Positions 26,369 to 62,877 of a DNA stretch of 64,000 nucleotides are shown here, piece by piece. The notes below the pieces were generated by a model. It saw only the letters and a list, made by a program, of their open reading frames with translations. It searched no databases and was not told where the DNA came from. Numbering within the stretch: position 1 is the stretch's first letter; each line of letters starts with the position of its first letter. This stretch comes from Clostridia bacterium (GTDB lineage: Bacteria; Bacillota; Clostridia; UMGS1883), in NCBI GenBank assembly GCA_045656645.1, contig JAZORN010000103.1:18319-82318 (forward strand). The letters run 5' to 3'. A program made the translations under genes and the position numbers.

Positions 26369-27193
26369 ATGGTTATAAGCTATGATATTGATAAAATAAA
26401 TGCCGCACTTGAAGATTTTTACAAGGCGACGGATATTAATATGAATTTACTCAAAGCAGACTTTTCCTTTGTTGGCGGCCGCTCGCACAGAGAAAATAAC
26501 CGCTACTGCGAGGCTATCCAGAATACCCCGAAAGGGAAAAAGGAATGTCGGTTTTCTGATATAAGACTGCTTGAAAAATGCAGAGAAACCAAAAAGCCTC
26601 AGATGCATATATGCCCCGCAGGACTTATTGACGCCGCTGCCCCCATTTTTTATAACGATGTAATTATCGGTTATATCATATTTGGCGAAATGAAGGCAGA
26701 CATCCCATTTTCCGATTATAAAGAATATCTGTCATCACTTGGTCTTGATACCGAAGAAATGGAGAAAAATTACAATGCCATTTTCGCCTTTAATTCTGAA
26801 AAAATACAAAGTGTATCAAATATTGCGAGTATGCTTGCAAAGCATCTTTTGCTTGAAAATATGCTCAAACCCGACTTTGATGAAAATATGCAGAAGGCAG
26901 TTGCCTTTATCAATGAAAATCTGTGCAATGACTTAAGCATCCGTAATATATCAAAAAATATAAACGTATCAAAAAGCGTGCTGTATAAACGCTTTCACGC
27001 CTGTTTTAACTGTACGGTCAGCGAATATATCAACACACGGCGTGTTGAAAAATCAATTGAGCTTTTGATGCGAACTGACCTTTCAATTGAGGAGATTTCT
27101 CAAAAGGTTGGGTTTTCAAGCGCATCATATTACAGTAAAATTTTTAAAAAAGAAAAAGGGATTTCTCCCCTTAATTACAAAAAGAGGCTGTGA
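26369..27193 (+). CDS. AraC-family transcriptional regulator with an N-terminal PocR-type sensory domain.
   Basis: The start is ATG at 26369 (RBS GGGAG). The N-terminus (…CEAIQNTPKGKKECRFSD…HICPAGLIDAAAPI…) is PocR-like. The C-terminus has tandem HTH_AraC motifs (…SVLYKRFHACFNCTVSEYIN…IEEISQKVGFSSASYYSKIFKK…). It is divergent from the aminotransferase operon. Confidence 0.8.
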   Translation: MVISYDIDKINAALEDFYKATDINMNLLKADFSFVGGRSHRENNRYCEAIQNTPKGKKECRFSDIRLLEKCRETKKPQMHICPAGLIDAAAPIFYNDVIIGYIIFGEMKADIPFSDYKEYLSSLGLDTEEMEKNYNAIFAFNSEKIQSVSNIASMLAKHLLLENMLKPDFDENMQKAVAFINENLCNDLSIRNISKNINVSKSVLYKRFHACFNCTVSEYINTRRVEKSIELLMRTDLSIEEISQKVGFSSASYYSKIFKKEKGISPLNYKKRL

Positions 27194-27217
27194 CAAAACT
27201 CACAGCCTCTTTTGGCA

Positions 27218-28585: not shown

Positions 28586-28710
28586 ATATGTAACCTCCGT
28601 TAATTTATATAGCCGAAAAATACCGAAATTTCGTCATTTCAGGCATGTTCAGATTTTTCTCTTTCGGCGATCTGCTATATTTTACCACACAACAGAATTT
28701 TTGTAAATAG

Positions 28711-28741
28711 GGGATGTAAAAATAGGCTTTTTACATCCCCA
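28711..28741 (-). terminator. Hairpin terminator.
   Basis: GGGGATGTAAAAA-taggc-TTTTTACATCCCC. Confidence 0.7.
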
Positions 28742-28746
28742 TATCA

Positions 28747-29181
28747 TCAAAGATAACAGCGTATATCTACCGCGAGCTTTTCCTCAAGGTTTATAAGGCG
28801 TTTTGTAATATCCTTTGAAACCTCATCTGCTGCTTCGTATTTGTTAAGATATTTGTTAAGGGATTTTACACCCATATTGCATCCATCGGTCATAAGGTCT
28901 GCTATTGTGGCATCAGTTTCGTTCATTGCGAGCTTCATATTTGTTTTCATCCAGCTCATTCCCTTTGCAATTGCTGCTGGCTCTTTTCCGTCATCATTAA
29001 ATTTATCAAGAATTTCCTGAAGCTCACGGTCTAATTTTTCGTGTTCTTCCTTGCAGTCAGTAAGAATTTTTTCAAGACGATCACTTGTAACAGAGCCTAA
29101 AACATCTTCTATCGAAGACACACCCATTTTAACACCTGCATCACATTCCCTAAGAAGTTTTATTGTATCCTGTTCAATCAT
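28747..29181 (-). CDS. Hypothetical all-helical protein (~144 aa).
   Basis: ORF in the track. The likely start is MIEQDTIK at 29181 (RBS AAAGGAAG). The heptad-rich sequence suggests a four-helix bundle. I am not confident of any family assignment. Confidence 0.5.
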   Translation of the reverse strand: MIEQDTIKLLRECDAGVKMGVSSIEDVLGSVTSDRLEKILTDCKEEHEKLDRELQEILDKFNDDGKEPAAIAKGMSWMKTNMKLAMNETDATIADLMTDGCNMGVKSLNKYLNKYEAADEVSKDITKRLINLEEKLAVDIRCYL

Positions 29182-29282
29182 TGTTTTTCTTCCTTTCTTT
29201 CTCAGATACAATAATTATTCCCTTTAAATGTACGATAATTCAAAAAAGCAGTTGTAAAAAATTTACAACTGCTTTTTGCCAA

Positions 29283-37292: not shown

Positions 37293-37334
37293 AAGGGGTG
37301 TAAAAAAACTTGTTTTTTTACACCCCCTTTTTTG
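37293..37334 (-). terminator. Long perfect hairpin terminator.
   Basis: GGGGTGTAAAAAAA-cttg-TTTTTTTACACCCC, flanked by A-runs and T-runs. Confidence 0.7.
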
Positions 37335-37588
37335 GGGGATAGGAAAAAATGCTTCAGAACGGACAAACTGAGCCAACAAAGCCCATATATGGGCTTTGTT
37401 GGGTTACCCGAAGGCGTACGTGGGTACGTCAAGAGGCGAAGTTTGTTCGTAGCAAAAAGGCTTATAAACTAAGAAAAATCGAATGAAATAAGATTTTTCA
37501 ACCAAATTCAGATGTTTTACAAACTATAAACCACCTGAATTTCGTATCTTTATCGCCTTTTTGCGGTCTGGACTTTTTTTACATCCCC
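37335..37588 (+). repeat. Family-B structured intergenic repeat, copy B1 (254 bp).
   Basis: Outer inverted termini GGGGATAGGAAAAAA… / …TTTTTTTACATCCCC. Conserved core CAGAACGGACAAACT…AGTTTGTTCGTAGCAAAAAGGC…GCCTTTTTGCGGTCTG, shared with 41652-41881 and, inverted, with 59393-59599. Confidence 0.85.
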
Positions 37589-37593
37589 ATTTG

Positions 37594-38436
37594 TCAACCG
37601 ATTATTTTTTCTTTATACTTCATTGTTGTGTTATAGCCTATATCATACATTTTCTGTATCTTGGCGGGATCTCTTTCAGTACGCTTCCAGTCTGAGGTAT
37701 CCTCCTCGGGGGCAATGAGAATAATTCTGCCTGCCTTTTCAAGTTCCAAAAGACGGTGATGCGCATCGTTATACATCTTGGTACGGTTTTCAAGTGCCTT
37801 TTTTAATTCAGGATATTTTTTGTATAAAAAGCTGCTGATACCGATTGCAGGCTCGACCTCTTTTTCATAGCTGCGTTCACGTGTGATAATGACAATCAGC
37901 TTTTCACATCCGTCATCAAGTGCTTTCTGAAAGGGGATAGAGTCAGTAATGCCACCATCCATATAAAGCTTACCGTTTATTTTGATTGGCTGGAAAAGAA
38001 GAGGGAGAGCACAGCTTGCAATAACTATCTGCCATGATTTATCCTCGCTCGTTACGGGAAGATACTCGCACTTGCCCGTTTCTATATTCGTAAGAGCCGC
38101 AATAACAGTGCATCCTGAATTATCATACGCCTCATAATCAAAAGGCAAATATTTATTGGGAAGCTCGTCAAAAACGAATTTTAAGTTGTAAAGACTGCGG
38201 TTTTTGGGGTTGAGCCAATGCCTGAGGCCCATATAACGCTTATCAGGAAGATAGTGAAGACCGATCTGAAGTCCGCGGCCACGCTGCCCCGATACATACG
38301 ATATTCCGTTGGCAACACCTGCAGATGTACCGATGAGGTAATCCGTTTTCACCCCTAAATCTGTAAGTGCATCAAGCGCCCCCACTGTAAAATATCCCCT
38401 GCTGGCACCGCCCTCAAGCACAAGTCCTGATTTCAT
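37594..38436 (-). CDS. Patatin-like phospholipase.
   Basis: Contains GGASRGYF and the GTSAG nucleophile motif. Confidence 0.88.
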   Translation of the reverse strand: MKSGLVLEGGASRGYFTVGALDALTDLGVKTDYLIGTSAGVANGISYVSGQRGRGLQIGLHYLPDKRYMGLRHWLNPKNRSLYNLKFVFDELPNKYLPFDYEAYDNSGCTVIAALTNIETGKCEYLPVTSEDKSWQIVIASCALPLLFQPIKINGKLYMDGGITDSIPFQKALDDGCEKLIVIITRERSYEKEVEPAIGISSFLYKKYPELKKALENRTKMYNDAHHRLLELEKAGRIILIAPEEDTSDWKRTERDPAKIQKMYDIGYNTTMKYKEKIIG

Positions 38437-41217: not shown

Positions 41218-41565
41218 TCAGTCGTTACTTTCAATATCGTGAAGAAGCTTATTTATATGTGCACCGTATTCAATGGAGGTGTCCTCCACAAATGAAAATT
41301 CCGGAACACAGCGAAGCTTTATACGGCTTCCGATTTCACGTCTGATATACCCACGGGCAGCGGTGAGCGCCTTAAGCGCATCCTTTTTTTCATCAGCAGA
41401 GCCCATAACGCTGATATATGCCTTCGCATAACTTAAATCACTTGTCACATTTACGCTGACAACACTTGTCATCATAGGAATTCTCGGGTCTTTAAGCTCA
41501 CGGATAACACTGCTTAATTCCTTTTTTATTTCTTCAGATATTCTGTCTGTTCTTTTAAAAGACAT
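41218..41565 (-). CDS. rbfA: Ribosome-binding factor A.
   Basis: Contains RISEEIKKELSSVI…VNVTSDLSYAKAYIS. Confidence 0.93.
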   Translation of the reverse strand: MSFKRTDRISEEIKKELSSVIRELKDPRIPMMTSVVSVNVTSDLSYAKAYISVMGSADEKKDALKALTAARGYIRREIGSRIKLRCVPEFSFVEDTSIEYGAHINKLLHDIESND

Positions 41566-41651: not shown

Positions 41652-41881
41652 GGGATAGGAAAAAAGGTTCAGAACGGACAAACTAAACCCCGAAGGGGCT
41701 TGCCCGAAGCTGTATGTGTATACAGCGAGAGGTGAAGTTTGTTCGTAGCAAAAAGGCTTAGTACAAAGAAAAACAGAGCGTAGTGAGGTTTTTCAACATT
41801 ACATACATAAAACTGAAAATTTGCACTTTCCTAAAGTTAATATTTCTTGCCTTTTTGCGGTCTGGGCATTTTTAACATCCC
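41652..41881 (+). repeat. Family-B structured intergenic repeat, copy B2 (230 bp), between infB and rbfA.
   Basis: It begins 1 nt from the infB stop codon (41883-41885). It has the same core as B1 but different hairpin sequences. Confidence 0.85.
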
Positions 41882-41882
41882 G

Positions 41883-44174
41883 TTAGCGAGCGACTTCTTC
41901 CATTACGAAGCATTCAACATTGTCGCCCTCTTTAATATCGTTGAAACGTACGAAGCCCATACCGCATTCATAGCCGCTTGCAACTTCTTTAACGTCATCC
42001 TTGAAACGCTTGAGTGAATCAAGCTCACCCTCATGGATAACGATACCGTCACGTACAATTCTTACGCTGCAGTTGCGCTGAATTTTACCGTCTGTAACAT
42101 AACATCCGCCGATTGTACCTACACCGCTTACCTTGAAGGTCTGACGGATTTCTGCGTGACCGATAACAGCCTCACGGAAGGTAGGTGCAAGCATACCCTT
42201 CATAGCTGCCTCAATTTCCTCAATAGCCTCATATATTACACGGTACATACGCATATCAACCTTGTTAAGCTCTGCCGCATTTCTGCCGCCCACATCAGGA
42301 CGTACGTTAAAGCCAACAATAATTGCATTTGATGCAGATGCGAGGGTAACGTCGCTTTCAGTGATAGCACCTACTGCGCCGTGAATTACTCTTACACGTA
42401 CTTCCTCGTTTGAAAGCTTTTCAAGGCTCTGCCTTACAGCCTCAACACTACCCTGGACGTCAGCCTTAACGATAATATTAAGGTCTTTTACATCACCCTG
42501 CTGAATCTGGCTGAAGAGGTCATCAAGGTTAACTCTCTGACGTGCCTTGTTGGCATCGTCTTTTATCTTCTGCTTTCTTGTTTCAACAACGTGACGTGCG
42601 GCACGCTCGTCGCTTACTACATAGAACGGATCGCCGCCATCGGGTGTTTCGCTGAGACCTACAATCTCAACAGGGGTGGAGGGAACAGCCTCTTTAATCT
42701 TCTTTCCGTGATCGTCAACCATTGCCCTTACTCTGCCCACTGCAGTACCCGTAACAATGATGTCGCCCTGTCTGAGTGTTCCGTTTTGTACAAGAACTGT
42801 TGCAACGGGACCTCTGCCCTTATCGAGCTTCGCCTCAATAACAGTACCTCTTGCCTGACGGTTGGGGTTAGCCTTAAGCTCCTTCATTTCGGCGGTGAGA
42901 AGCACCATTTCAAGAAGTGAATCAATATTCTTACGCTGTTTTGCACTAACCTCTACGCAGATAACATCGCCACCCCATTCCTCGGGAACAAGGCCGTGCT
43001 CTGTAAGCTCCTGCTTAACTCTGTCAGGATTAGCACCGTCTTTATCTATCTTATTGATTGCTACAATTATACTTACCTCAGCAGCCTTTGCGTGGTTAAT
43101 AGCCCCGATAGTCTGGGGCATAATACCGTCGTCTGCCGCTACAACGAGGATTGCAATGTCCGTAACAAGGGCACCGCGGGCACGCATTGCGGTAAACGCC
43201 TCATGTCCGGGGGTATCAAGGAATGCAATCTGATTTCCGTTTATATTTACCATATATGCACCGATGTGCTGTGTGATACCGCCAGCCTCGCTTGCCGTAA
43301 CGTTTGTTGAGCGGATTGCGTCAAGAAGACTTGTTTTACCGTGGTCAACGTGACCCATTACGCAGACAACAGGGGGACGGGGAAGAAGGTCCTTTTCTTC
43401 ATCGGGAGCTTCTGCATCACTTAAAAGACGTTCTTCTTCGGTGATGATGATTTCTCTTTCAACCTCTGCGCCCATATCCTCTGCAATAAGTGCAGCAACA
43501 TCATATTCAATATCCTGCGTGATTGCCGCCATAATTCCAAGCTGCATAAGACGCTTTATAATTTCTGTAGCGCCCACCTTGAGCTTTTGTGCAAGGTCAC
43601 CCACAGTAATTGTATCGGGAATAATGATGTGAAGCGGCTGCTTCTTTTCTTCCTTTTTGGGCTTTGGCATTTCAGGCTGCTTGGGCTGACTTTTCTTTTG
43701 CGGCTGCTGCTTGTTTTTATTCTTCTTAACTCTCTGCTTATTTGTTTCCGTATCCTTGATTTCAGGGGCAAGCTCTTCAGCCTTTTCCTTTGCAAGCTGC
43801 ATATCAAGGTCAACGGCATTTGTTCTTGTGTCAACATAACGCACATTTTTTGTGGGGGTAATAACCTCATCAATGCTTTCTTCTGCAGGAGCGGAAATTT
43901 CGGTGGCTTTTTCCTCTTTCTCAGCCTTTTTTGTTGCTTTAGCTTCCTGCTCCTTAAGAGCCTTTTCCTGATGTGCGTTTACATATTCTTCTATAGTAGA
44001 GCCGTCATCAAATTTTTGTGTATAGTAATCCATCACAACGCTCATCTCGTAAACATCAAGAGAAGCGGCTGTGCTTTTCGTAATCCCCATAACATCGGAA
44101 AGCATTTTTACAATTTCCTTACCGGGAACATTTATAGCTTTTGCTATTGCGCTGATTTTCTGTTTTGCGATCAT
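41883..44174 (-). CDS. infB: Translation initiation factor IF-2.
   Basis: GTPase motifs [17 protein letters not shown] and NKID. Confidence 0.97.
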
Positions 44175-54596: not shown

Positions 54597-54771
54597 TTAG
54601 TGGTATTCCATCTTTGATGGAGTGATATTTTTGCAGCGCAAAAGTGTTATTGCAAACTATGTTTGCAATTATATTATATTTGCCTTTTAACTGTGCGGAG
54701 CACAATATCACTCGGCGATAGCCGAATATAACTGCGAAGCAATATAACTTGCCGTAAGGCAAATATAACTG
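54597..54771. repeat. Family-F hairpin array, right arm of the inverted repeat.
   Basis: See 52345-52520. Confidence 0.85.
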
Positions 54772-54806: not shown

Positions 54807-54881
54807 TGGAGCGGAAGACGAGATTCGAACTCGCGACGTTCACCTTGGCAAGGTGACGCTCTACCACTGAGCCACTCCCGC
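54807..54881 (-). tRNA. tRNA-Gly (anticodon GCC), CCA encoded.
   Basis: The minus strand reads GCGGGAGTGGCTCAGTGGTAGAGCGTCACCTTGCCAAGGTGAACGTCGCGAGTTCGAATCTCGTCTTCCGCTCCA, which folds into a standard cloverleaf. Confidence 0.95.
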
Positions 54882-57211: not shown

Positions 57212-57218
57212 AGCGTAG

Positions 57219-57371
57219 CAATAAAGAAGAAGTTACCGCTTCTCACCTCACGGGGTTTACTTGTGTGGTTAATAATTATGGGCGTTTTTATGATGCTTGT
57301 TTTTTGGAGCGGTAGGTTTTTCCTGCCGCTTTTGTTATGTGCGGCACAAATTTTCTTTGGAGGTGTTTTCC
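57219..57371 (+). promoter_or_regulatory. infC operon leader with an intrinsic terminator/attenuator (L20-leader-like).
   Basis: About 150-nt leader. Hairpin GCGGTAGG-ttttt-CCTGCCGC followed by TTTTGTT at 57309-57336, upstream of the infC RBS. Confidence 0.5.
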
Positions 57372-58506: not shown

Positions 58507-58565
58507 TTTAAAAAACCGTTTCCGCACATACGCGGGAGCGGTTTTTGAGTAAATTGGATTTGGTG

Positions 58566-59348
58566 ATGAGGACTATGGTTATTACAAGCCGTGACAATAA
58601 AATATTTAAGCTTGCAAGCCGTCTTAAAAGTGCAAGAGGCAGAAACGAGGAAAAGCTCTTTCTTATCGAGGGGGCACGAAGTGTTCGTGATGCCTACGAT
58701 AAGGGGGCAGATTTTCACTGCATAATTTTATCTGAAAATGCGCAGTTGCAGTTTAAGGCAGATTGTCCGATTTATACCTTTGCGCCCAAGCTTTTCGGGG
58801 AAATTTCTGAGACGGTGACACCGCAGGGTATTATAGCTGTCTGCCGTATGAGAAAGTGCAGTTTAGAGGACATTCTTGCGAAAAACAGTGACCTTGTAAT
58901 ACTGTGTGAGGCTCTGCAGGACCCGGGAAATATAGGCACAATAATACGAACTGCACACGCAGCATTCTGCGGCGGCGTAATCCTTAGTAAGGGATGCTGT
59001 GATTTATATAATCCAAAAATAGTACGTGCGACTATGTCAGGTATGTTTTCAGTGCCCGTTGTGCAGGGGATAAGCGCAAAGGATGCAGTGGAAACATTTT
59101 CAAAAAATGGCTATGCTGCTGTTGCAGGTGCACTCACAGAAAAATGCGTTGACCTTTATGATGCAGATTTAAAGGGAAAGCATCTTATAATAATCGGTAA
59201 CGAGGGAAACGGTGTTACAAAGGAAACCCTTTCTATGTGTGACAAGGTGGTTAAAATACCTATGCATCCCGATGCAGAAAGCCTTAACGCTGCAGTTGCA
59301 GGCAGCGTAATGATGTATGAACATTACCGCCAAAACACAAAAAAATAA
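58566..59348 (+). CDS. TrmH/SpoU-family RNA 2'-O-methyltransferase.
   Basis: Contains DPGNIGTIIRTA, …IIGNEGNGV… and SLNAAVAGSV. The start is uncertain (ATG at 58566 or 58575); the track ORF begins at 58545, inside the rplT terminator. Confidence 0.85.
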   Translation: MRTMVITSRDNKIFKLASRLKSARGRNEEKLFLIEGARSVRDAYDKGADFHCIILSENAQLQFKADCPIYTFAPKLFGEISETVTPQGIIAVCRMRKCSLEDILAKNSDLVILCEALQDPGNIGTIIRTAHAAFCGGVILSKGCCDLYNPKIVRATMSGMFSVPVVQGISAKDAVETFSKNGYAAVAGALTEKCVDLYDADLKGKHLIIIGNEGNGVTKETLSMCDKVVKIPMHPDAESLNAAVAGSVMMYEHYRQNTKK

Positions 59349-59392: not shown

Positions 59393-59599
59393 GGGCTGCG
59401 ATAAAATGCACAGACCGCATAAAGCATAGAAAAGTTTATATAAAGGCGCTTAATGAAATAAAGAAGCAAAGTAAATTCAAGGTAAAAATGCATTATGCTA
59501 CGAACAAACTTCGCCTCTCGACGTACCATCGTACGCCTTCGGGTAACCCAAGCTGCGCTTGGCTCAGTTTGTCCGTTCTGCACTATTTTCTCTTCGCCC
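59393..59599 (-). repeat. Family-B structured intergenic repeat, copy B3 (207 bp, inverted orientation).
   Basis: The reverse complement contains CAGAACGGACAAACTGAGCC…CCCGAAGGCGTACGATGGTACGTCGAGAGGCGAAGTTTGTTCGTAGC. Confidence 0.8.
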
Positions 59600-59630: not shown

Positions 59631-60734
59631 ATGGATAAGCGTCTTATATGGGCGATAAAATCTTCATATGTTACTCCTACCCGCAAAAAGCTTGAAGAGC
59701 TTCGGGCAAGAGAGGATTTATTTGATGAAGACCTTATTGATATAAGGGATAAAAAGTGTATGTGGGCGGTTTCGAGCTTTGAAAGGGCTATTGAAAAGGG
59801 ATGCCACATAGTTACCTATATTGACGATATTTATCCTGAGGCTTTTCGTGAAATATCACTGCCACCACCTGTTCTTTATGTGAGAGGCAATGTCCATGCA
59901 CTCAGCCACGGTGTTTATGCGGGAATGGTAGGCTGCCGCAAAAGTGATGACTACGGACTTAGAATGGGAATGCAGCTTGCACGCGAAATAGGCCAAACTG
60001 GTGCAGGTATAGTTTCAGGCGGTGCAGAGGGTGTTGATGCTGCGTGCCATCAGGGTGCAATTATGGCAGGTGTGCCTACAATTGCAGTTTTCGGCTGTGG
60101 CGTTGATATAAGCTATCCCCCTTGTAATGCGGAGCTTTTTGAAAGAATTGAAAAAAGCGGCGGAGCCCTTATAAGTGAATTCCCTATGGGATTTTCACCC
60201 TCGAAAAAGACATTTCCGCAGAGAAACAGACTTATTGCCGCTCTTTCAACGGCAGTTGTGGTTGTGCGTGCGGGAAAGAACAGTGGTTCGCTTATTACAG
60301 CAAATCAGGCGATAAATATGAATAAAACGGTTTTTGCCGTTCCCGGAAATATTGATGACGGTTTAAGTATCGGCACAAACGAGCTTATCCGTGACGGTGC
60401 ATTTGTGCTTCTTAGCGCAATGGACGTTATAGATGAGCTTATTGAAAGAAAGCCTGACTTTTTTGTAAGGGAAAAGGAAGAAAAACCAAAAATAGAAATC
60501 CTTCCGTATGAAAAACCGACCAAAAAAGTGAAAACGAATGTAGTTCTTTCGGAATATGAAAAAGAAATTGTAAATATAATAAATGACGGATACACGGCGC
60601 TCCCCGATATAGAAGGACAGATAAGCTTTGATGCATCACGGCTTACGGCTCTTCTGACAATGATGGAAATGAAGGGTGTTATAAAGCGGGGAAGCGATAA
60701 AAAATATAAATTGACAAGCGGAGGAGAATGTTAA
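59631..60734 (+). CDS. dprA: DNA processing protein DprA (Smf).
   Basis: Contains …PPVLYVRGN…GMVGCRK…SGGAEGVDAACHQGA…FPQRNRLIAAL. Confidence 0.92.
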   Translation: MDKRLIWAIKSSYVTPTRKKLEELRAREDLFDEDLIDIRDKKCMWAVSSFERAIEKGCHIVTYIDDIYPEAFREISLPPPVLYVRGNVHALSHGVYAGMVGCRKSDDYGLRMGMQLAREIGQTGAGIVSGGAEGVDAACHQGAIMAGVPTIAVFGCGVDISYPPCNAELFERIEKSGGALISEFPMGFSPSKKTFPQRNRLIAALSTAVVVVRAGKNSGSLITANQAINMNKTVFAVPGNIDDGLSIGTNELIRDGAFVLLSAMDVIDELIERKPDFFVREKEEKPKIEILPYEKPTKKVKTNVVLSEYEKEIVNIINDGYTALPDIEGQISFDASRLTALLTMMEMKGVIKRGSDKKYKLTSGGEC

Positions 60735-62836: not shown

Positions 62837-62877
62837 CAGAGCTGTAAAAAGTTGGTTTTTTACAGCTCTGATTGTTT
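62837..62877 (+). terminator. Rho-independent terminator after topA.
   Basis: CAGAGCTGTAAAAA-gttgg-TTTTTTACAGCTCTG. Confidence 0.75.

Follow-up and report, generated by a model that had tools for sequence, protein, structure and literature searches.

The question raised by this locus is whether a short non-coding sequence with covarying hairpins is an RNA, a signal in single-stranded DNA (ssDNA) or a transposase-binding repeat. The sequence analysed, hereafter the window, comprises 64,000 nucleotides (nt) of a Clostridia bacterium (contig JAZORN010000103.1, positions 18,319 to 82,318), and the element occurs in it as three copies, B1, B2 and B3. The original prediction, made from the window alone, described an outer stem enclosing two domains, domain 1 with hairpins 1 and 2 and domain 2 with an AT-rich interior, and left undecided whether the folded molecule is RNA or ssDNA. 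The explanation tentatively preferred here, at slightly under an even chance, is that the element is a non-autonomous mobile gene-end cassette with terminators, whose core is recognised as folded ssDNA. The family to which the three copies belong is apparently real, widespread and undescribed.

All three copies are present at the predicted coordinates and in the predicted orientations, and they are exactly the matches that the window gives to a profile hidden Markov model (HMM) built from 89 family members. Their parts are listed below, where H is a terminator-like hairpin 5' of the left arm and hpT a second such hairpin within domain 2.

37335–37588, plus strand: main element B1, a full copy with an H hairpin (profile HMM E = 4e-64)
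37295–37326, plus strand: H hairpin of B1, GGGGTGTAAAAAAA-cttg-TTTTTTTACACCCC and then a T-run; 32 nt, 14 pairs
37335–37354, plus strand: left arm of B1
37355–37358 and 37567–37570, plus strand: P1 of B1, CAGA pairing with TCTG
37359–37450, plus strand: domain 1 of B1 (P2 to P2')
37373–37402, plus strand: hairpin 1 of B1, 13 perfect pairs with a tata loop; side hairpin of the domain-1 junction
37407–37436, plus strand: invariant CCCGAAG of B1, then hairpin 2, then the purine strand AAGAGG
37413–37430, plus strand: hairpin 2 of B1, GGCGTAC-gtgg-GTACGTC
37452–37461 and 37555–37564, plus strand: the two paired sides of the domain-2 stem of B1
37473–37499: inner hairpin hpT of B1, GAAAAATC...GATTTTTC between an A-run and a T-run
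37571–37588, plus strand: right arm of B1
41652–41881, plus strand: main element B2, without an H hairpin (profile HMM E = 1e-52)
41670–41675, 41674–41746 and 41865–41881, plus strand: CAGAAC, domain 1 and right arm of B2
41748–41757 and 41849–41858, plus strand: the two paired sides of the domain-2 stem of B2
59393–59599, minus strand: main element B3, without H and with a short domain 2 (profile HMM E = 6e-47)
59580–59575 and 59576–59500, minus strand: CAGAAC and domain 1 of B3, whose domain-2 stem is GCATAA/TTATGC

The blocks CAGAACGGACAAACT, CCCGAAG, GAAGTTTGTTCGTAGCA and TGCGGTCTG are identical across the three copies, and hairpin 1, hairpin 2 and the domain-2 stem are in each copy as predicted. 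The predicted shared architecture is also present in all three, with two corrections. CAGAAC and ACGGACAAACT, described as successive, overlap by two bases, so that the junction is formed by P1 (CAGA/TCTG), P2 and the domain-2 stem; and the H hairpin of B1 had been left out. The extent of the element had therefore been drawn too short, as the unit is often larger and the 32-nt hairpin that precedes B1 belongs to it. The minimum free energies of B1, B2 and B3 are -94.3, -69.6 and -65.2 kcal/mol, with z-scores against dinucleotide shuffles of -8.5, -4.6 and -3.4, respectively.

A scan for the exact pattern CAGAACGGACAAACT-N(10-40)-CCCGAAG in one genome per GTDB species returned at least 118 further loci. 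Each locus was studied with about 8 kb around the copy, on fragments of metagenome-assembled genomes (MAGs), with genes called by the simple open reading frame (ORF) rules of this analysis. The 15-mer and the 7-mer are conserved across the collected loci by construction, because both form the search pattern, while outside these two blocks the sequence of the collected copies was free to vary. An exact-pattern collection biases the sample of copies, and the copies are mutually related, so the counts given below overstate independent events. An nhmmer profile of 89 full copies gave 152 matches in the collected loci. Among the matches listed, the host MAGs are labelled Clostridia, Acutalibacteraceae or Oscillospiraceae (Oscillospirales), many of them are named for sheep, goat or deer gut samples, and some genomes have 10 copies or more, one MAG yielding about 10 loci (11 matches). 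Many pattern matches sit at contig ends; thus the element breaks MAG assemblies.

The prediction that the element fits no known RNA family is borne out by three Rfam searches. At the gathering threshold, Rfam 15 matches the whole window only at tRNAs, an L20 leader and Gut-1, all outside the copies; on B1, with E values up to 10, the best match is nqrA-II at 26.6 bits against a threshold of 55; and six related loci gave zero matches. A literature search returned analogues (PMC12288879, PMC3049150, PMC8040213) and no description of the element family. A phage origin was considered and rejected, as all 35 pattern matches in IMG/VR are due to chance and none matched the family HMM; BLASTN against PLSDB and INPHARED (GenBank phages) was likewise empty for a plasmid or phage origin.

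The fold is defined by a network of covarying helices. From a MAFFT alignment of 59 copies, RNAalifold derives a three-way junction of P1 (CAGA/TCTG), P2, which closes domain 1, and the domain-2 closing stem of 9–10 base pairs (bp). Domain 1 is a rod from which hairpin 1 branches sideways. P2 contains 11 pairs, among them a G.U pair (G.T in DNA) fixed in 58 of the 59 copies, and is followed by a tandem G.A/A.G loop and a covarying R:Y pair (AU 33, GC 24, GU 2). Past hairpin 1 the rod comprises the invariant CCCGAAG, hairpin 2 and the purine strand GAGAGG. RNAalifold proposes that CCC pairs with G.GG; these columns are invariant, so covariation gives no information there. For the 51-pair structure in the 59 copies, the fraction of cells that pair is 90.6%; it is 82.5% in shuffles (none of 500 reaches the observed value) and 40–51% with the partners slid. 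Changes on both sides of a pair occupy 264 cells against 94 in shuffles, and the covariation score is 0.246 against 0.106.

The domain-2 stem has double changes in 9 of its 9 pairs and pairing in 98% of cells, and an anchor-based count over 67 distinct domain-2 stems agrees with the count from the alignment. Hairpin 2 adds three covarying pairs (GU25/CG19/GC12/UA2; CG37/UA21; CG32/UA27). Hairpin 1 occurs in 65 distinct versions of 3–14 bp that are almost always perfect, their pairs comprising 457 Watson-Crick, 6 G.T, 5 A.C and a single mismatch. The claim that pairing is kept while the sequence changes, made from three copies, thus gains statistical support on 59–89 copies. The outermost stems covary as had been claimed, 10 of the 16 arm pairs being changed on both sides and 73% of cells pairing; the arms are at the same time imperfect terminal inverted repeats, which differ between subfamilies yet remain matched. 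When orthologous copies from different species are compared, identity is 86–100% in domain 1, the stems and the arms and falls to 63% in the domain-2 interior, with 72–88% in the flanking coding DNA.

A small protein was considered as the product of the element. The left arm resembles a ribosome-binding site with ATG or GTG, and B3 holds a 69-codon ORF. B2 has no start codon ahead of CAGAAC, the position of ATG or GTG shifts the frame between subfamilies, and the span across hairpin 1 is 16, 17, 22, 23, 24, 25, 31 or 35 nt. The reading was dropped because no frame is conserved and the hairpin lengths have no period of 3.

The fold of domain 1 is specific to one strand. Its mean energy is -36.7 kcal/mol on the plus strand of the element and -27.6 kcal/mol on the minus strand, and every one of the 82 copies favours the plus strand. 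With DNA energy parameters the direction is unchanged for B1, B2 and B3, and domain 2 has no such bias. The favoured strand is antisense to the abutting gene. The loops of this strand are dominated by GNA in the hairpin-1 triloops (22 of 26, of which 21 are closed by C-G, with none on the other strand), and among 70 tetraloops two are GNRA and none is UNCG. Loops of the d(GNA) type closed by C-G are exceptionally stable in DNA (PMC3201870), while their RNA versions are much less stable (PMC13037366, section 2.3). In addition, CCGAAGG, which is contained in the invariant CCCGAAG(G) of the element, is the mini-hairpin of the ssiA priming signal of RSF1010 (PMC13037366, section 4.2). Domain 1 is flanked on both sides by terminator-like hairpins, hpT on one side and H with its T-run on the other, and in the copy that was scanned no acceptable -35/-10 promoter pair occurs in the approximately 25 nt between H and domain 1. 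Domain 1 appears to be shielded from transcription. On the choice between RNA and ssDNA the loop types, the flanking terminators and the lack of an evident promoter lean towards ssDNA, and we favour a DNA role for the plus strand of domain 1.

The same strand preference could be explained by a multi-copy small-RNA gene, whose product, trans-acting or antisense, would be the plus strand of domain 1 ending at hpT, about 130–140 nt in length. The fixed G.U pair of P2, the approximately five T that follow hpT on the plus strand and the high sequence conservation in domain 1 all agree with such an RNA. However, the scanned copy has no sigma-70-type promoter ahead of domain 1, and in about half of the copies H and its T-run, some 25 nt upstream, leave no room for one. 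The domain-2 stem, P1 and the arms covary though they would lie outside the RNA, the triloops are GNA instead of GNRA or UNCG, and no Rfam family matches. A small-RNA gene is thus improbable.

The two terminator-like hairpins are themselves recurrent parts of the unit. Of 85 full copies, 40 carry a perfect hairpin H (9 bp or more) just ahead of the left arm on its 5' side, typically in the form GGGGyTGTAAAAAAA-loop-TTTTTTTACArCCCC followed by TTTTT(A), and that of B1 is listed both by a terminator scan (14 pairs, tail CTTTTTTGGG) and by a perfect-hairpin scan. Six paralogues in one MAG have the same H and the same hairpin 1, with everything outside different; because paralogues with unrelated flanks share it, H belongs to the mobile unit. 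One subfamily retains the H loop CGCAAG across loci and species, and H-type hairpins are adjacent to main elements in 33 cases and solo in 6. The idea that H is a pre-existing host terminator serving as a target was rejected, as paralogues share the same H and solo H is rare. In 70 of 83 copies the site of hpT is occupied by a perfect hairpin of 6 bp or more, with an A-run on one side and a T-run on the other. Its 5' A-run is richer than its 3' T-run in 57 copies and poorer in 10, so hpT should terminate better in the gene-sense direction. With a G+C-containing stem and a T-run, H and hpT both classify by sequence as putative intrinsic (Rho-independent) terminators, and hpT of B1, located between domain 1 and the abutting gene, has the appearance of a bidirectional terminator. 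In B2 this hairpin is weak and B3 lacks it; these are the two copies that lie inside gene arrays with a co-oriented gene downstream.

H-type hairpins also occur alone in the window:

28710–28740: solo H-type hairpin, GGGGATGTAAAAA-taggc-TTTTTACATCCCC, 5–6 nt past the stop codon of ORF 28747–29211 (minus strand)
62837–62870: second solo H-type hairpin, from the perfect-hairpin scan

The first of these represents either the minimal form of the family or a relative that lacks the core. The window hairpins at 27180–27213, 29243–29277 and 62837–62870 contain an inner TGTAAAAA...TTTTTACA or CTGTGA...TCACAG, as found in the arms, and begin 4–6 nt downstream of stop codons; they may be family remnants without a core.

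The element is placed with precision at gene ends. The distance from the stop codon of a convergent ORF to the right arm has a median of 3 nt and lies between -15 and +10 nt in 67 of 77 copies (frame-based), and 82 of 93 copies have a convergent gene next to the right arm. Among the 73 copies for which both neighbours were classified, none has divergent genes around it, and in tandem gene arrays the orientation is split 33 to 10. In several copies the ORF terminates inside the arm itself (ATG TAA, TGT TAA or GTG TGA). The right arm of B1 is separated by 5 nt from the stop codon of a patatin-like gene (37594–38436, minus). B2 lies between infB (41883–44174, minus), whose TAA stop touches the arm, and rbfA (41218–41565, minus), in a conserved operon. 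B3 is located between a SpoU-type methyltransferase gene (58545–59348, plus) and dprA (59631–60734, plus). Ordinary terminators here also start about 4–6 nt after stop codons; thus the element occupies the terminator slot.

Contact with the stop codon also speaks for a cis-acting RNA module of the 3' untranslated region (3'-UTR), which would be transcribed in sense with the upstream gene and would stabilise its mRNA, direct processing or set read-through. In one variant four arm-like segments would pair alternatively to control read-through: a ribosome at the stop codon would cover the first arm, and the second arm would then pair with the left arm of H and block the H terminator. About 87% of copies abut the stop codon in sense orientation to the transcript, and H follows the element as a terminator would. 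B2 must be transcribed within the infB–rbfA operon, its hpT being weak, and B3 has no hpT; orthologous copies are kept in place across species, and REP, ERIC and BOX elements work in this way. Against this, domain 1 folds worse on the sense strand in every one of the 82 copies, and C.A mismatches replace the fixed G.U pairs on that strand. The longer U-run of hpT in the sense direction implies that most transcripts should stop short of domain 1, roughly one copy in three sits between convergent genes with no downstream gene to control, and RNA-type tetraloops are almost absent. We consider such a module unlikely.

Orientation set by replication rather than by the neighbouring gene was rejected, since the GC skew of the element strand is negative in only 48 of 77 copies, whereas 82 of 93 follow the abutting gene; all three window copies would fit a replication-set orientation. 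Between 44000 and 50000 of the window the GC skew flips from about -0.1 to +0.1/+0.17, with a cumulative minimum at about 46–48 kb, and genes diverge from there, on the minus strand leftward and on the plus strand rightward. This is probably a replication origin region. Of the Rfam matches in the window, Gut-1 lies at 54700–54771 (minus; 51.8 bits against a threshold of 50) beside tRNA-Gly (54807–54881), and the L20 leader at 57218–57343, upstream of infC-rpmI-rplT.

The unit is not only folded, it also moves. Within one MAG, near-identical paralogues can be aligned over the whole unit, beginning at the left arm of H and ending at the right arm, while their flanks are unrelated, and tandem, core-less and internally deleted copies were found. 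Old copies exist as well: in different species, orthologous pairs have the element at one and the same gene end, for example at secA. The slots of B1 and B2 differ between strains whose neighbour protein is 96–99% identical. In relatives with a 99% identical AsnC, the B1 slot has three other states, which share the flank CCGTAAAAA(A)TTCGCC. The first holds H alone, with a clamp and loop unlike those of the window H. The second (L236-L242:1134-1345) is a decayed main element without H, without hairpin 2 and with a broken P2; the DUF3048 ORF now ends in its arm (ATC GGA ATG TAA) with its last codons replaced, and thus the element can rewrite the C-terminal codons of a neighbour. The third is an unrelated 250-nt 3' region with an ordinary terminator. 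The B2 slot of the metagenome contig L119, where RbfA is 96% identical, contains instead a different repeat of about 100 nt with GCGAAAT-like heptads, between the infB TAA and the shared flank TAATAA(T/A)TATCTACAATAAAG. These polymorphic slots look like cassette replacements and not like simple insertions.

The heptad repeats form a family of their own (GCGAAAT/TTCGAAT-like, at both ends), located at L119:2780-2890 in the infB–rbfA spacer and also in the flanks of L001, L015, L022, L042, L044, L050 and L079; in the window the family is not above chance level. A second structured insert of about 190–220 nt replaces the loop and the 3' arm of hairpin 2 in several copies (L109:141-560, L033, L039, L052, L053, L074, L111 and L017, with variants in L042 and L063). 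It begins with GCGTCAAAGCAAAG, contains CTTTTCCTTCTCCCCAAAAAGC...GGGGTCCCCGAAAGTCGCAAGACTTTAAGGGGAAGAGGAGCAA and has no Rfam match; the orthologous loci L033 and L002 differ in that the former has it and the latter does not. Inside domain 2 of L045 (minus), an insert of about 370 nt lies between 30-nt direct repeats of the whole inner hairpin (AAAGGGAATCACACATTGGTGCGATTCCCT), and a further element seems to target or duplicate the inner hairpin there.

The trace expected of ordinary transposition was not detected. For duplications of 2–5 nt at offsets 0–2 in 76 copies, no setting rises above shuffled flanks, and TAA...TAA at B2, considered as a target duplication, is not general across copies. 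None of the at least 118 loci contains a transposase-bearing copy. When 850 ORFs of 118 loci were clustered, only AraC paralogues and housekeeping orthologues recurred, and a tblastn search of the collected loci for an IS200-type TnpA gave no match, although this test is weak. The original prediction had opposed selection on a folded strand to a transposase-binding terminal repeat. A folded strand is indeed favoured over a plain transposase-binding repeat, because the pairing is conserved, no copy bears a transposase and no target duplication is found; the opposition itself does not hold, as multi-copy paralogues at unrelated loci, derivatives and presence/absence between strains make the family mobile as well.

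These results bear on an ordinary miniature inverted-repeat transposable element (MITE), in which the arms would be repeats bound by a DDE transposase encoded elsewhere and the internal fold would be incidental or weakly helpful. The terminal inverted repeats of such an element are present, imperfect and varying between subfamilies yet matched, and the element is a small one, found in many copies and only in intergenic DNA, with nested insertions and deletion derivatives. On the other hand, target-site duplications are missing from the 76 copies and a transposase-carrying copy from the loci collected, the covariation extends deeply through several helices, the core is more conserved than the arms, domain 1 is strand-asymmetric, and hairpin 1 is perfect in nearly all of its 65 versions. 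An ordinary MITE is therefore improbable.

In the preferred explanation, a mobile gene-end cassette with terminators and a core read as ssDNA, the unit would consist, in gene-sense order, of the stop codon, an arm, the three-way junction, the second arm, an A-run and the terminator hairpin H. Two domains would branch from the junction: domain 2 as an AT-rich spacer with hpT, and domain 1 as a conserved rod bearing a variable hairpin on its side. Transcripts of the flanking genes would end at hpT and H, which would make insertion at gene ends harmless and keep domain 1 free of transcription. The conserved core would not be a gene product; a trans-acting enzyme would read it on the antisense strand folded as ssDNA, candidates being a hairpin-specific HUH nuclease, a tyrosine recombinase or a priming enzyme of the ssi/sso type. 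Whole units would be excised and inserted, or exchanged, at gene ends without target duplication. In its boldest form, domain 1 would be a chromosomal ssDNA signal and, comparably to attC or ssi/sso, a structure-specific site, though of a new class, through which a hairpin-recognising recombinase, nuclease or primase would move or swap complete gene-end cassettes; this is conceivable and rather doubtful. If true, it would be an undescribed way of spreading transcription terminators.

Several observations weigh against the preferred explanation. The strand on which domain 1 folds better serves as leading-strand template in B1, B2 and B3, because the GC skew flips at about 46–48 kb and the genes diverge there, and the leading-strand template is normally not exposed as ssDNA in replication. 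The loop argument rests on thermodynamic knowledge and not on measurement of the element. The replacements in the slots could equally come from homologous or illegitimate recombination, and no clean pair of empty and filled sites occurs among the loci compared. No HUH, tyrosine-recombinase or reverse-transcriptase gene was seen within the roughly 8 kb collected around any copy. The perfect hairpins kept in cross-species orthologues fit a per-locus function better than a purely selfish element, and template switching in quasi-palindromes can keep short hairpins perfect without selection.

Whatever its mechanism, the element can alter the C-terminal codons of a neighbouring ORF, and it could pass for a riboswitch-like RNA in motif screens. 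Cassette exchange would show that the terminators and 3' ends of infB, secA and rbfA are swapped between strains. If the core acts as folded ssDNA, it would point to a new structure-specific mobility or priming system in a large uncultured fraction of the gut microbiota.

By what was found, the element is not a retron, an IS200/IS605 derivative, an attC site or a member of an Rfam family, and it combines the terminal inverted repeats of a DDE-type MITE with the absence of target-site duplication. The likeness to attC is nevertheless considerable: both lie directly after a stop codon in fixed orientation, keep structure while sequence and length vary, fold on the strand complementary to the coding strand, make no target duplication and differ in content between strains. 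The attC consensus is R'' RYYYAAC and R' GTTRRRY, over a length of about 57–141 nt. In contrast, the element, with CAGAAC and G(G/T)TCTG, shares only AAC and GTT of these core sites, is branched and, at 207–300 nt, 2–4 times longer. Its copies are dispersed instead of arrayed, its neighbours are housekeeping genes (infB, rbfA, secA) and not cassettes, and no integrase was seen near the copies, no genome-wide integrase search having been made. With IS200/IS605 elements and their derivatives it shares the lack of target duplication, one-strand hairpins and oriented insertion. In IS200 a terminator hairpin at one end shields the element from outside transcription. The ends of the present element, however, are inverted repeats without two similar subterminal hairpins on one strand, and no constant tetra- or pentanucleotide lies 5' of its left end, where the flanks are variable and T- or A-rich.

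The ssi signals of RSF1010, G4-type origins and sso are similarly non-coding, 100–250 nt long, folded on one DNA strand and orientation-dependent, and contain GNA/GNNA mini-hairpins as the element does, with the ssiA CCGAAGG lying within CCCGAAG(G) (PMC13037366). They are single-copy parts of plasmids or phages, whereas the element is chromosomal and occurs in dozens of copies. In Pseudomonas putida, the ssr9 module of ISPpu9 (IS110 family), small and non-coding, spreads independently by means of a transposase encoded elsewhere, lands in palindromic extragenic repeats and has solo copies scattered in the genome (PMC12288879). By analogy it may serve as a precedent for a non-coding module that spreads through a transposase encoded elsewhere. 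There is no sequence or structural similarity between the two, no DEDD transposase was seen near the element, and the hairpin arms of the element travel with the unit instead of serving as its target. In comparison with retron msr-msd, the arms could act as a1/a2; no reverse transcriptase or recurrent ORF family lies near the copies, and the element is multi-copy.

The closest parallel in way of life is provided by REP/BIME, ERIC, BOX and Correia repeats, which are likewise non-coding, multi-copy and intergenic, mostly at gene 3' ends, and form foldable imperfect palindromes with modular or nested variants. Some of these repeats act as terminators or mRNA stabilisers, and compensatory changes are reported for ERIC. 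By analogy, the element may work like such structured interspersed repeats of other bacteria. Pneumococcal repeats of this kind are described in PMC3049150. The element has the defining features of neither these repeats nor attC. It has no sequence relation to the interspersed repeats, its hosts are uncultured Oscillospirales, and it differs from them in its larger size (250–300 nt), its three-way junction with a near-invariant core of about 90 nt, its strand-specific fold, the two terminator hairpins that flank the core and the 3-nt median gap to the stop codon. The element thus joins features that usually occur apart: mobile turnover, deep covariation, built-in terminators and exact stop-codon placement.

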